From the NCBI RefSeq assembly GCF_041248615.1, contig NZ_CP158426.1: DNA of 64,000 nucleotides; one strand, written 5' to 3'. The first letter of the stretch is position 1; every line of letters starts with the position of its first letter. The position numbers were made by a program. The DNA is from Escherichia coli (GTDB lineage: Bacteria; Pseudomonadota; Gammaproteobacteria; Enterobacterales; Enterobacteriaceae). Positions 56,301 to 64,000 of the stretch are shown here, piece by piece.

Positions 56301-59300
56301 GATCATCACGACATAATTTTTCTTTAACATCGCAAAATACACCGTTAGCGAATGTAAATTCGCTGGGATCGTAGCCTTGTACTGATTGTAAGTTTTCAGC
56401 GGCTTTTTCGCCGAGATATTTCCTTGTTAACTCTGGGGAAATGCCAGCTGAGTTCACACAAATATACGGGTCGCAAACAACGCCGCACGCCGGAGATTGA
56501 AGTCCGCCAGCGTCATTTCCAGACGCCATTGATGAGAACATCATCCCCACACCTGACAATCCGATATAAAAAATACGCATCATATTCATAGCACATCCTG
56601 ATAATCCAACCGTACAACACTTATGCTCATTTCATCATCAATCCGTAATCAAAACCGCTGACCTGGACGAGTTACGATGACCTGACAGAAGTATCAGACG
56701 TCTTCTGCGGTTTCTATGATAGAGCAATTCTGTGGCGGATATTAAGATAACGGGTATCTGTTCTTTAATGATGCCGCAAAAAATGGAAAGTTAAGAAAGC
56801 CTGGCGTGGTGAAAAAATACACTCGCCTCAATACTGGATATTTAAACAGTTCTGAAGATGCTGTCACGATTAGGGTGCGGAAAAAGGAAGCGTAAATAAG
56901 AACAATCAAAAGTACGACGGCAATGGGCTGATTGACAAGGGTATTTTTTAAGCTATGAATCAGCGCCATTTATCACAGAATAGACTTTTACTCTGAATAA
57001 ATGGGAGGGTGACTTGCCTCAATATAATCCAGACTATAACATGCCTTATAGTCTTCGGAACGTCATCGCGCGCTGGCGATGATTAATAGCTAATTGAGTA
57101 AGGCCAGGATGTCAAACACGCCAATCGAGCTTAAAGGCAGTAGCTTCACTTTATCTGTGGTTCATCTGCATGAGGCAGAACCTAAGGTTATCCATCAGGC
57201 GCTGGAAGACAAAATCGCTCAGGCCCCCGCATTTTTAAAACATGCCCCCGTTGTACTCAACGTCAGTGCACTGGAAGACCCGGTAAACTGGTCAGCGATG
57301 CATAAGGCGGTTTCGGCAACCGGTTTGCGGGTTATTGGCGTAAGTGGCTGCAAAGATGCGCAACTTAAAGCCGAAATTGAAAAAATGGGGCTGCCTATCC
57401 TGACGGAAGGAAAGGAAAAAGCGCCGCGTCCAGCTCCCGCACCGCAGGCTCCAGCGCAAAATACAACGCCGGTCACAAAAACGCGTTTAATAGATACCCC
57501 GGTGCGTTCCGGTCAGCGTATTTATGCTCCACAATGTGATCTGATTGTTACAAGCCACGTTAGCGCTGGGGCCGAATTGATTGCCGATGGTAACATTCAT
57601 GTCTATGGCATGATGCGCGGTCGTGCGCTGGCAGGGGCAAGTGGTGACCGGGAAACGCAAATATTTTGTACGAACCTGATGGCGGAACTGGTGTCCATCG
57701 CAGGTGAATACTGGCTGAGTGATCAAATCCCAGCAGAATTTTATGGCAAAGCGGCGCGACTGCAGTTAGTCGAAAACGCTTTGACCGTTCAACCGTTAAA
57801 TTGATCCCTTTTTAACAAGGAATTTCTATGGCACGCATTATTGTTGTTACTTCGGGCAAAGGGGGTGTTGGTAAGACAACCTCCAGCGCGGCCATCGCCA
57901 CTGGTTTGGCCCAGAAGGGAAAGAAAACTGTCGTGATAGATTTTGATATCGGCCTGCGTAATCTCGACCTGATTATGGGTTGTGAACGTCGGGTCGTTTA
58001 CGATTTCGTCAACGTCATTCAGGGCGATGCAACGCTAAATCAGGCGTTAATTAAAGATAAGCGTACTGAAAATCTCTATATTCTTCCGGCATCGCAAACT
58101 CGCGATAAAGATGCCCTCACCCGTGAAGGGGTCGCCAAAGTTCTTGATGATCTGAAAGCGATGGACTTTGAATTTATTGTTTGCGACTCCCCGGCAGGGA
58201 TTGAGACCGGTGCGCTAATGGCACTCTATTTTGCAGACGAAGCCATTATTACCACCAACCCGGAAGTCTCCTCAGTACGCGACTCTGACCGTATTTTAGG
58301 CATTCTGGCGTCGAAATCACGCCGCGCAGAAAATGGCGAAGAGCCTATTAAAGAGCACCTGCTGTTAACGCGCTATAACCCAGGCCGCGTAAGCAGAGGT
58401 GACATGCTGAGCATGGAAGATGTGCTGGAGATCCTGCGCATCAAACTCGTCGGTGTGATCCCTGAGGATCAATCAGTATTGCGCGCCTCTAACCAGGGTG
58501 AACCGGTCATTCTCGACATTAACGCCGATGCGGGTAAGGCCTACGCAGATACCGTAGAACGTCTGTTGGGAGAAGAACGTCCTTTCCGCTTCATTGAAGA
58601 AGAGAAGAAAGGCTTCCTCAAACGCTTGTTCGGAGGATAAGTTATGGCATTACTCGATTTCTTTCTCTCGCGGAAGAAAAACACGGCCAACATTGCAAAA
58701 GAACGGCTGCAGATTATTGTTGCTGAACGCCGTCGCAGCGATGCAGAACCGCATTATCTGCCGCAGTTGCGTAAAGATATTCTTGAGGTCATTTGTAAAT
58801 ACGTACAAATTGATCCTGAGATGGTAACCGTACAGCTTGAGCAAAAAGATGGCGATATTTCTATTCTTGAGCTGAACGTGACCTTGCCGGAAGCAGAAGA
58901 GCTGAAATAGGCCCGCTGTAAAAACGCATTTCTCTTCAAGGCAGAGTCATCTCTGCCTTGCGTTTTTCATCCCCCTCATCCACGTTTGATAAGAGCGGCG
59001 AGTATTCTTGCTGATGCTACTCATTGCTTCCCCCCCTTTACACCTTAATGCCGTTCCCCCCACACAGAACAAATTGTTTATACCTGGCTGAGTAAATAAC
59101 CTTATTGTTAGTATGGGTATACTGGGAGATGATAACCCCGCAATTTCATTATTCATTGTTCTCCCATAGGATGAGGTTTCCCGCCGTAACTGGCGGGCTT
59201 TTTTTGCCGCAGAATTTTTCCTTTTAACACCCTGTAAACGAAAACTGCGCCGAAGCGCAGTTTAATCGTTGATGGTCAGAACGACCAGTTCACACCAGCC

Positions 59301-62300: not shown

Positions 62301-64000
62301 CCTCCCTCACTAATTGTCTGGCTGCCACCGTTAATGACTGTATTATTAGCCTGCCCCTGATAAGAGCCATGACCAGATACCTCTTGATGTCCACCAGTAT
62401 CAATAACACTTCCATTAGAAATCCCGCCATATACCTCCTGATTGCCGTGATTGATGATATGAGCATTATTTGTTGTACCTCGTTCATCTACTCTTTGGCT
62501 GCCGTCTACAGTCTCATCATTTACAACGCCAATAACATTAGAAGTGAAGGCCGTCATCCCAGGCGGGGCATATATCATGGCAGCTATCAATAAGGAAAGT
62601 ACTGAGCGGTGAAAATAATAGCGACTGATTCTGTTCATAAATTTCATCCTCTGAAAAATGAATACTGAGTAGCGTCTAAGTAACCTAAGCTCGGCTGCAA
62701 CATCAGCCCGCAGGCACCAGACCAGGGGATTCATCCTGAAGAGACAGCGCAGGTGTATTGTGTTCACCGCTCACCAAAGACATCATGATGAAATGATGAT
62801 ATCCCGCATAAGAAAGAGGCATTTTTTAAACGCAGTGCGCTGAAGTGTAGTTGGATAAAAAATCACTCTTTTCAGATAATACTGTCGTACGCTTATCTTT
62901 TGACAATGAGGCCGTCGGCAAAATAAAATGACTAATGTAATCGTTGCTGATGAATATCTTCTGCTCACATAAAAATCACACAATAATATTGATAAATCAG
63001 ATTATCTTACCTTTACAACATTGCGTTAACAGTCAATGACACTTCTTGAATAAAAATATTGTCAATCAATGAGTTATTCCTCATTTAAGATTATTCTCAT
63101 TCACGTAAAAAACATAATTCCTATCATCACAGCCACGCTCATTTTGAATTATCTGAATAATAGCGAGCGTTCTTTAGTTAAGCAGATCTTAATTGAAGAC
63201 GAAATTATTGTGTGTGCAACTTACTTAATACCGGACATCTAAGTTGAAGAAAAAAATACTTGCCTTCGGGCTTATCTCAGCATTGTTCTGCTCCACGCCA
63301 GCGATGGCGGATATGAACCGCACCACGAAAGGTGCATTGCTAGGCGCAGGCGTTGGTTTACTTACTGGCAATGGTGTTAATGGCGTACTGAAAGGTGCAG
63401 CTGTTGGCGCTGGTGTTGGTGCAGTAACAGAAAAAGGCCGCGACGGTAAAAATGCGCGTAAAGGTGCAAAAGTGGGTGCCGCCGTTGGTGCTGTCACTGG
63501 CGTTCTGACCGGCAATGGCCTCGAAGGGGCGATTAAAGGTGCCGTGATTGGCGGTACGGGTGGTGCAATTCTGGGTAAAATGAAATAAGGAATGATGATG
63601 AAAAAATTTGCTTTACTGGCAGGTCTGTTTGTTTTCGCACCAATGACCTGGGCGCAGGACTACAATATTAAAAACGGTTTGCCGTCAGAAACCTATATTA
63701 CTTGCGCAGAAGCCAACGAAATGGCAAAAACTGACAGCGCACAGGTTGCAGAAATTGTTGCGGTAATGGGTAATGCCAGCGTTGCCAGCCGTGATTTAAA
63801 AATTGAGCAATCTCCGGAACTGAGCGCCAAAGTGGTAGAAAAACTGAATCAGGTTTGCGCTAAAGACCCGCAAATGCTGTTGATCACGGCAATTGATGAC
63901 ACCATGCGTGCTATCGGCAAAAAATAATATTTAATATGTTACCGCGTCGATGAATTCGACGCGGTATTTTAGCTAACGGGGATCAGAACTTATATTTCAG

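Follow-up and report, generated by a model that had tools for sequence, protein, structure and literature searches.

An intact full-length ycgI allele in Escherichia coli very probably encodes an AIDA-I-type autotransporter, a shortened paralog of YpjA/EhaD

The gene at 59276–62638 on the minus strand of the window, the whole 64,000-nucleotide stretch of E. coli DNA analysed here, is very probably an intact full-length allele of ycgI encoding a type Va autotransporter of the AIDA-I type, a shortened paralog of YpjA/EhaD. In K-12, ycgI (b4521) is a 344-bp pseudogene between minE and ymgJ, annotated at 1223564–1223907. It keeps only the last 114 codons and the stop (window 59276–59620, minus strand, 97.1% identity over 345 nt), whereas the window gene retains its full 1120 codons together with start codon and Shine-Dalgarno sequence. 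The gene itself is not new, as genome databases annotate such a CDS routinely. Hundreds of RefSeq genomes carry it as an uninterrupted CDS with the product name 'adhesin-like autotransporter YpjA/EhaD'.

In the ORF list of the window, the minus-strand frame is open from 62767 to the stop codon at 59276–59278. Re-translation from the ATG at 62638 gave 1120 codons and a stop without any internal stop. The uninterrupted 1120-codon frame described by the sequence-only reading was thereby borne out, and no frameshift or stop was found in it. The chance of 1120 stop-free codons was calculated as (61/64)^1120, or about 1e-23. PGAP annotates the same CDS in NZ_LT599825.1, a 100% identical record, as WP_001590060.1, and the Pfam and NCBIfam matches given below are in line with a complete CDS of 1120 aa plus stop. 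An identity look-up in a collection of 15 billion proteins did not return the exact sequence of the window protein. A Shine-Dalgarno motif, GAGG (62648–62651, minus strand), was read from the sequence 9 nt 5' of the ATG at 62638–62636. Both the motif and the ATG are kept in all nine alleles compared and also in ypjA. The GTG at 62767, which would give a 1163-aa frame, was considered as an alternative start and rejected. Its extension is interrupted by stops or a frameshift in three alleles, and the position of the GAGG suits the ATG at 62638.

The position of the gene was compared with the K-12 annotation, in which the order is ycgH-ymgD-ymgG-ymgI-ymgJ-ycgI-minE. The window gene has minE on one side and ymgJ, ymgI, ymgG and ymgD on the other, and this is the position of ycgI. 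The K-12 stub aligns to window 59276–59620 and nowhere else. The alignment to K-12 proposed in the sequence-only reading located the lesion. Pairwise blastn with base-level inspection of the junction identified a single segment of 3048 bp (window 59621–62668) that is absent from K-12 and comprises codons 1–1006, the ATG, the Shine-Dalgarno sequence and 30 bp upstream. On either side of this gap, K-12 and the window remain collinear, with the upstream flank resuming at 62669. At the base level, the K-12 junction reads ...GGATAAATGATA|GTAGCGTCTAAGT..., and strain U14A has the same junction. The endpoints overlap by only 1 nt, and an imperfect AAATGA(A)TA motif occurs close to each of them; this gives no support for a repeat-mediated deletion. 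The statement in that reading that K-12 has a disrupted pseudogene here was right, since a 344-bp remnant lies at the exact position and the K-12 copy is a 3'-terminal stub, not an intact gene. The name attached to it, ycgH, was wrong, as the remnant is ycgI. Likewise, its suggestion of an intact adhesin gene stands as regards the full-length frame against the disrupted K-12 remnant, with the adhesin role predicted by homology, but not as regards the 'ycgH locus'.

The predicted protein begins with a Sec-type signal peptide of about 30 aa (62549–62638, minus strand). According to the hydropathy profile, a basic n-region, MNRISRYYFHRS, is followed by a 12-residue hydrophobic core, VLSLLIAAMIYA, then by PPGMTA and then by F. 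The A-x-A-like end at about aa 30 suggests a cleavage site there. The sequence-only reading had described this signal as extended, and this description did not hold. At E ≤ 10, the N-terminus gave no ESPR-type Pfam match, whether or not the upstream extension of 43 aa was included. The coding status of this extension is not conserved, since stops or a frameshift interrupt it in three alleles. An ESPR-class signal has about 50–60 aa with a conserved N-terminal extension, and the window protein has neither. The signal of YpjA is listed as 29 aa versus 52 aa for Ag43 (PMC13101318), and the signal of the window protein is homologous to that of YpjA.

The order of a passenger of degenerate beta-helix-like repeats, a linker and a C-terminal barrel in the sequence-only reading agreed with the AIDA repeats, pertactin-like region, (Asn-Pro)n linker and beta-domain found. 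The passenger (aa 31–760; 60359–62548, minus strand) is predicted to be a right-handed beta-helix of AIDA-type strand-loop-strand repeats. It contains six matches to Pfam AIDA (PF16168, E 6e-88) and seven copies of the NCBIfam repeat TIGR04415, and its PDB sequence matches are the passengers of Ag43, the AIDA-I family and TibA (E about 1e-29). AF2 modelled it as a beta-solenoid, all-beta with short strands, at pLDDT 70–96 over about aa 60–600. In a Foldseek search with this model, the best structural matches were Ag43 (7koh, E 4e-16) and TibA (1.5e-11). At its C-terminal end, the passenger has a pertactin-like, putative autochaperone region (aa 641–759; 60362–60718, minus strand), which matches PF03212 (E 1.1e-45) and pertactin 1dab (E 5e-16). 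A proline-rich (Asn-Pro)n linker follows (aa 761–816; 60191–60358, minus strand), and TRF reports its DNA as a 6/12-bp tandem repeat at 60233–60352. This linker is the source of nearly all length variation among the alleles, and alignment gaps are confined to aa 762–794 and a 4-aa indel at aa 654. The next segment (aa 817–858; 60065–60190, minus strand) is an alpha-helical linker, predicted to lie inside the barrel pore from the alignment with BrkA (3qq2), the TIGR01414 match and an AF2 helix at 835–851 of low confidence.

The remaining part of the protein (aa 859–1120; 59279–60064, minus strand) is assigned as the outer-membrane beta-barrel translocator. The autotransporter beta-domain PF03797 covers aa 859–1098 (E 5.4e-46) and TIGR01414 covers aa 663–1120 (E 1.9e-97). 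The PDB matches of the barrel are the BrkA translocator (3qq2, E 6e-24, aligned over aa 838–1120) and Vag8 (7akv). The C-terminus, ...AGVNWSF, ends in an aromatic residue as expected of a BAM beta-signal. With an alignment of 10 sequences, AF2 left the barrel unmodelled (pLDDT about 20 for linker and barrel), and the barrel assignment therefore rests on sequence profiles. The Sec signal, C-terminal barrel domain and terminal aromatic residue are those of a type Va autotransporter. The AIDA-repeat beta-helical passenger and the pertactin-like segment before the linker are those of the AIDA-I type. Ag43, AIDA-I and TibA have a passenger of this kind, along with an autochaperone region and a barrel; of the solved structures, they gave the best matches in both sequence and fold. 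However, passenger identity to them is only about 21–27%, and the NCBIfam equivalog models all score far under their cutoffs (auto_Ag43 186 versus 1200; auto_AIDA-I 159 versus 1200). The window protein also matches TIGR04415, a repeat that marks targets of an autotransporter heptosyltransferase. Unlike the Ag43 class, it has no ESPR-type long signal, and no heptosyltransferase gene is annotated adjacent to it.

The closest relative is YpjA/EhaD (b2647; K-12 and O157:H7), which has the same architecture, a homologous signal, a homologous upstream region of about 390 bp and the same RefSeq product name. The window protein shows 81% aa identity to K-12 YpjA over 1006 aa and is near-identical from about aa 300 to the C-terminus. 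In blastn against the K-12 ypjA region, the gene and about 390 bp upstream were 86–94% identical. On the other hand, K-12 ypjA is located at 2778146–2782726, beside prophage CP4-57 and ileY, whereas the window gene adjoins minE, and the two are not collinear over the full length. The window protein is 406 aa shorter (1120 aa versus 1526 aa for YpjA). Two passenger blocks of ypjA, of about 197 and 214 aa (5423–6013 and 6591–7232 of the K-12 ypjA-region sequence), have no counterpart in the window gene; they would correspond to some 20 rungs of the helix if each rung takes about 20 aa. The (Asn-Pro)n linker is longer and simpler than that of YpjA. From this comparison the window gene is judged to be a shortened paralog of ypjA/ehaD, not its ortholog. 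NZ_LT599825.1 has a second matching place, which is consistent with its own ypjA. Fixed divergence from ypjA is 9–14% in the first 900 nt versus about 1% in the 3' two thirds, and this mosaic pattern points to gene conversion with ypjA. Among nine intact alleles, dN/dS is 0.05–0.20 with dS up to 0.11, which indicates that the gene is maintained by purifying selection.

The distribution of the locus types was determined in 5426 complete E. coli genomes. The K-12-type junction, detected with a 140-bp probe and counted when this was covered at 80% or more, was found in 4599 genomes (about 85%). The passenger of the locus type is kept in 408 of the 5426 (7.5%). Nine of twelve inspected carriers have an intact CDS of 1092–1144 aa, adjoining minE every time. 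Carriers include NRZ14408, O55:H7 (RM12579) and many human clinical isolates. In O157:H7, IS1203 is inserted at two different sites in the gene, and this loss is independent of the 3048-bp deletion. IS1 inactivates the gene in LP5-1, and an IS903B insertion lies in the leader. The loss in about 85% of genomes together with the repeated IS insertions indicates that the gene is dispensable in most lineages.

Two other origins of the gene were weighed. That it is the intact version of K-12 ycgH (b4491) has virtually no likelihood, and this identity is refuted by synteny and sequence comparison. In favour of it, ycgH really is a K-12 autotransporter pseudogene of the same neighbourhood and the window gene does sit between minE and ymgD. 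YcgH is also a type Va autotransporter and is likewise a pseudogene in K-12 and intact in this strain. However, the two genes are distinct: seen from minE, ycgH lies beyond ymgD, and in K-12 it is found between ymgF and ymgD. Mapping of the NZ_LT599825.1 annotation onto the window placed the true ortholog at 63983–64000 (minus strand), where its last 18 bp fall within the window and the remainder runs out of it. This ortholog is intact (882 aa, 'ECIAI39_1904 family autotransporter adhesin'). It shares only 24% identity with the window protein (E 5e-7), and the window gene has neither the ymgF–ymgD position nor the YcgH similarity of an ortholog; the K-12 sequence collinear with its 3' end is ycgI. 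It is also very improbable that ypjA was recently duplicated or transposed into the minE–ymgJ spacer in a single lineage, with the K-12 stub as unrelated debris. Such an origin would fit the 86–94% identity to ypjA extending about 390 bp upstream, the shared PGAP name and the low fixed difference in the 3' two thirds. Against it, K-12-type genomes keep both ends of the unit, its final 345 nt and the block upstream from position 62669 on, which meet at one clean junction; these genomes therefore arose by deletion from a state with a full-length gene here. This junction is common to 85% of genomes of diverse backgrounds, the 9–14% divergence over the first 900 nt indicates an old paralog, and the intact alleles differ mutually by dS up to 0.11.

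Two further explanations concern function. The gene could be a silent relic, with an open frame but decaying and without current function in this strain. K-12 ypjA, ycgV and yfaL are cryptic in laboratory conditions, and their phenotypes come from forced expression. This background, the loss in about 85% of genomes, the repeated IS insertions (IS1203 twice, IS1, and IS903B in the leader) and the AT-rich leader with no convincing promoter in the scan would all suit a relic. Nevertheless, the low dN/dS of the nine intact alleles over dS up to 0.11 reflects continued purifying selection and not neutral decay. In addition, the alleles change in length only by in-frame linker repeat units, and the Shine-Dalgarno sequence and ATG are conserved. 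A relic is thus unlikely, but it is the most serious of the rivals. A secreted toxin or protease autotransporter of the SPATE type would have the type Va architecture and a pertactin-like region in common with the window protein, and this region gave an alignment to IgA1 protease (3h09) as well. Such a function is extremely improbable, however, because no peptidase S6 or other catalytic domain was found in Pfam or NCBIfam and AIDA-type repeats make up the entire passenger. In Foldseek, the top-ranking structures are Ag43 and TibA, both self-associating adhesins, while those of EspP, Hap and Hbp have E values of 5e-3 or higher.

The preferred reading, an intact ycgI allele encoding an AIDA-I-type autotransporter, allows a secretion pathway to be proposed by analogy, with its steps taken from the established knowledge of type Va secretion. 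The ordinary Sec signal of about 30 aa would direct the protein to the periplasm. BAM would insert the C-terminal 12-stranded barrel (aa 859–1120, terminal Phe). The linker helix would fill the pore, and the passenger would be threaded out with its C-terminus first. It would then form a long beta-helix, folding on the pertactin-like segment as autochaperone, with the (Asn-Pro)n spacer separating the helix from the barrel. On the surface, the protein would most likely act like YpjA/EhaD, YcgV and Ag43 in adhesion, cell-cell association and biofilm formation. The gene is probably poorly expressed in laboratory culture. The adhesin and biofilm role is thus a prediction from homology, and secretion, surface display and regulation are likewise proposed by analogy. 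Expression of YpjA, YcgV and YfaL promotes adhesion and biofilm formation (Roux 2005, cited in PMC3796261; PMC9289746). The transfer of the YpjA phenotype is an assumption, because the N-terminal 300 aa or so differ (9–14% fixed nucleotide divergence) and two blocks are missing. Literature searches on ycgI and on a second YpjA/EhaD-like gene found no paper that describes the intact gene; ycgI was met only in a review of OMPs, where it figures as a barrel fragment of K-12.

For the K-12 annotation, the result gives the origin of ycgI, a full-length YpjA-like adhesin gene removed by a single 3048-bp deletion. Some E. coli genomes have two genes that RefSeq labels 'ypjA', almost indistinguishable in their 3' two thirds. 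Because of this near-identity, similarity-based calls of the presence or absence of ypjA/ehaD can mix the loci or catch the stub. The intact allele is a predicted surface protein under purifying selection in its carriers and a reasonable, unremarkable candidate for adhesion and biofilm assays; the biological stakes are modest and the finding is an ordinary one. A broader interpretation is offered tentatively, as a possibility that we consider doubtful. The ycgI-locus protein may be a distinct selected adhesin in a minority of carrier lineages and not a redundant copy of YpjA. Its locus-specific N-terminal region of about 300 aa and a stalk shorter by about 20 rungs would then confer a different binding specificity or reach, while interlocus gene conversion would have homogenised the 3' two thirds with ypjA. 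The deletion and the O157:H7 IS insertions would be adaptive losses of a surface antigen. If so, adhesin surveys that type 'ypjA' by BLAST would be lumping two loci together.

The flanking DNA was also inspected. The 5' leader and putative promoter block (62639–63026, minus strand) is 84–93% identical to the ypjA upstream region in blastn and AT-rich in the composition profile (GC 0.34–0.41). The annotated small ORF ymgJ lies within it (62783–62968). A promoter scan upstream of the gene gave no convincing site, with one weak sigma-70-like match on the minus strand at 63029–63001. An Rfam search of 58850–63300 gave no match at E ≤ 1, and a hairpin at 59180–59205 corresponds to no known RNA family. 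Another hairpin, AAACTGCGC-CGAA-GCGCAGTTT (59242–59263), was read from the sequence; it follows the stop codon at a distance of 12 nt and is located immediately beyond the block that the gene has in common with ypjA. A simple scan did not list it, but it is probably the intrinsic terminator of the gene. Finally, a cross-species contig scan was made with the C-terminal pattern ...WNAVAGVNWSF, which is over-strict because most alleles have AGANWSF. Two mis-binned MAG contigs matched; one (L017) carries the K-12-type junction and the other (L018) is ypjA-like.

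In K-12 MG1655, the gene order is ymgF - ycgH - ymgD - ymgG - ymgI - ymgJ - ycgI - minE - minD - minC, where ycgH (b4491, 2648 bp) and ycgI (b4521, 344 bp) are pseudogenes. The autotransporter gene of the window (59276-62638, minus strand) is flanked by minE and ymgJ. Therefore, it occupies the ycgI position, and its K-12 counterpart is ycgI, not ycgH. The sequence-only reading was right that the window has an intact gene where K-12 has a degraded one, but the name ycgH has to be replaced on the ground of synteny. The true ycgH ortholog is a separate gene, 24% identical at the protein level, with its final 18 bp only (63983-64000) inside the window. 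In strain NRZ14408 (NZ_LT599825.1), which is 100% identical to window 58600-63950, this ortholog is intact and encodes an 882-aa 'ECIAI39_1904 family autotransporter adhesin' (3075654-3078302). Compared with it, K-12 ycgH is interrupted by a stop at codon 506 and lacks 1 bp at nt 2574; over nt 69-1654 of K-12 ycgH, which encode the passenger, the two genes are too diverged for megablast alignment. Since its ycgH ortholog is intact too, the strain of the window keeps both autotransporters flanking ymgD-ymgJ.

An alignment of the region with K-12, which had been proposed to find the lesion, placed it at ycgI. In K-12, the sequences matching window 58600-59620 and 62668-64000 directly adjoin each other, and the junction at base level reads ...GGATAAATGATA|GTAGCGTCTAAGT... 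Therefore, K-12 lacks window 59621-62668, a deletion of 3048 bp with a 1-nt ambiguity. The lost segment comprises 30 bp of the leader including the Shine-Dalgarno (SD) sequence, the ATG and codons 1-1006. K-12 keeps only the final 114 codons, at 97.1% identity with the window. At the deletion endpoints there is no meaningful flanking repeat.

In the ORF list, the minus-strand frame of the gene is free of stops between 62767 and its termination codon at 59276-59278. Re-translation from ATG 62638 gave 1120 codons without any internal stop, which confirmed the uninterrupted frame; by our own arithmetic, such a run is expected by chance at about (61/64)^1120, roughly 1e-23. ATG 62638 is the true start, because a GAGG SD motif lies 9 nt 5' of it, both elements are kept in nine alleles and in the paralogous gene ypjA/ehaD (b2647), the in-frame extension to GTG 62767 is not open in three alleles, which have stops or a frameshift there, and the PGAP CDS of NRZ14408 (WP_001590060.1) is the identical call. 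The extended signal peptide suggested earlier was not supported. The N-terminus has no ESPR-type Pfam match, even at E<=10 and with the upstream extension added, and its signal peptide, about 30 aa long, has the ordinary n-h-c organisation. The listed lengths of 29 aa for YpjA and 52 aa for Ag43 (PMC13101318) place it with YpjA.

The proposed autotransporter architecture was confirmed by domain searches. Pfam identified six AIDA repeats (E 6e-88), a pertactin-like domain (aa 641-759, E 1e-45) and an autotransporter beta-domain (aa 859-1098, E 5e-46), and NCBIfam added TIGR01414 (E 2e-97) and seven TIGR04415 strand-loop-strand repeats. The NCBIfam equivalog models for Ag43, AIDA-I, BafA and YfaL each scored far under cutoff. 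Among proteins of solved structure, the passenger is related to Ag43, an AIDA-I-family adhesin and TibA, the autochaperone region to pertactin, and the linker plus barrel to BrkA and Vag8. The AlphaFold2 model, based on a 10-sequence alignment, shows an all-beta solenoid, with a pLDDT of 70-96 for about aa 60-600, and it fails in the linker and barrel (pLDDT ~20). Its top Foldseek matches were Ag43 passengers (E 4e-16, probability 1.0) and TibA. Passenger and barrel are separated by an (Asn-Pro)n tract. The underlying DNA is a 6/12-bp tandem repeat (60233-60352) whose copy number varies among strains, always in frame, giving proteins of 1092-1144 aa. The protein ends in ...GVNWSF.

By homology, the protein would be exported through Sec on the type Va route, its barrel would be inserted with BAM assistance, and the passenger would be translocated C-to-N with folding nucleated by the autochaperone segment. 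No experimental work on the intact ycgI-locus gene was found in the literature. YpjA, YcgV and YfaL are described as promoting adhesion and biofilm once expressed (PMC3796261 citing Roux 2005; PMC9289746). By analogy, the window protein should behave in the same way. The K-12 autotransporters are cryptic and probably silenced by H-NS. The AT-rich leader (GC 0.34-0.41) and a promoter scan of the upstream region, which gave no convincing match, would fit such a state. Hundreds of RefSeq genomes already have the gene annotated, and its family is thoroughly known; only the exact K-12 lesion, its species-wide frequency, the separate losses through IS elements and the mosaic, concerted evolution with ypjA are mildly new.

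The distribution was determined in 5426 complete E. coli genomes. A 140-bp probe across the K-12 junction was covered by at least 80% in 4599 genomes (85%). This junction occurs on diverse backgrounds and is identical in strain U14A. The locus-type passenger segment (window 61712-62288), at a stringency excluding ypjA, was present in 408 genomes (7.5%) at one place per genome; one of these matches sits on a plasmid-classed record, not a chromosome. At least 80% of window 58600-63950 was found in one place in 422 genomes, the O157-type IS1203 junction (window ~60026) in 140 and the PV15-279-type in 2, and about 300 genomes fell outside all these classes. The gene adjoins minE in all 12 inspected carriers of the passenger. 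Its CDS is intact in nine (1092, 1104, 1120, 1122, 1122, 1126, 1128, 1136 and 1144 aa) and broken in three, by IS1203 in O157:H7 NE92 and PV15-279 and by IS1 in LP5-1, where the N-terminus is gone. The two O157:H7 IS1203 sites differ (window ~60026 versus 60426-60429), and in O157:H7 NE 1169-1 all sequence past the IS is rearranged. In F2_81 (4514-5482 of its record; window ~62684-62696), IS903B is inserted about 50 bp before the start codon; the allele is intact otherwise, and the insertion could silence or activate it. A K-12-type deletion junction was also seen in an 'uncultured Clostridiales' MAG contig (URTG01000020.1, 8920-9537), whose 8.9 kb before the junction is unlike the minCDE side of the window. 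This is probably E. coli DNA mis-binned into the MAG, or a rearranged or chimeric contig.

Pairwise Nei-Gojobori comparison of the nine intact alleles gave dS up to 0.11 and dN/dS of 0.05-0.20, and their lengths differ only by whole (NP) linker units and one 4-aa indel. This is how a gene under purifying selection behaves in the lineages that retain it. The gene is dispensable in most of the species. The alignment with the K-12 ypjA region covers the gene itself plus 10 bp of 3' and about 390 bp of 5' flanking DNA, with 94% identity at window 59266-61717 and 86-87% at 61712-63026; the window gene lacks two passenger blocks of ypjA (591 and 642 bp). Differences from K-12 ypjA that are fixed in all locus alleles amount to 9-14% in nt 1-900 and about 1% in nt 1200-3363. 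Of the minority variants carried by the O55:H7 and F2_81 alleles, about half equal the ypjA base. With K-12 ypjA as the sole comparator, we infer from this 3' drop and these variants an old paralog whose 3' two thirds were homogenised with ypjA by gene conversion. A second matching place in NZ_LT599825.1 is consistent with its own ypjA.

The leader block (62639-63026), which shares about 89% identity with the DNA preceding ypjA, contains the small annotated gene ymgJ (62783-62968, minus strand) and, overlapping it, a 120-bp ORF annotated as 'hypothetical protein'. In the ypjA copy, two stops interrupt the ymgJ frame, and in U14A ymgJ is annotated as frameshifted; thus ymgJ may be an incidental ORF of the autotransporter leader, not a conserved gene. 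In the spacer between minE and the autotransporter gene, a strong terminator-like hairpin on the plus strand (59180-59205, CCCGCCGTAACTGGCGGG then T7), which has no Rfam match, lies well 3' of the minE terminator (58937-58960). The hairpin does not coincide with the end of any annotated gene, and a 69-aa ORF is located opposite at 58947-59156.
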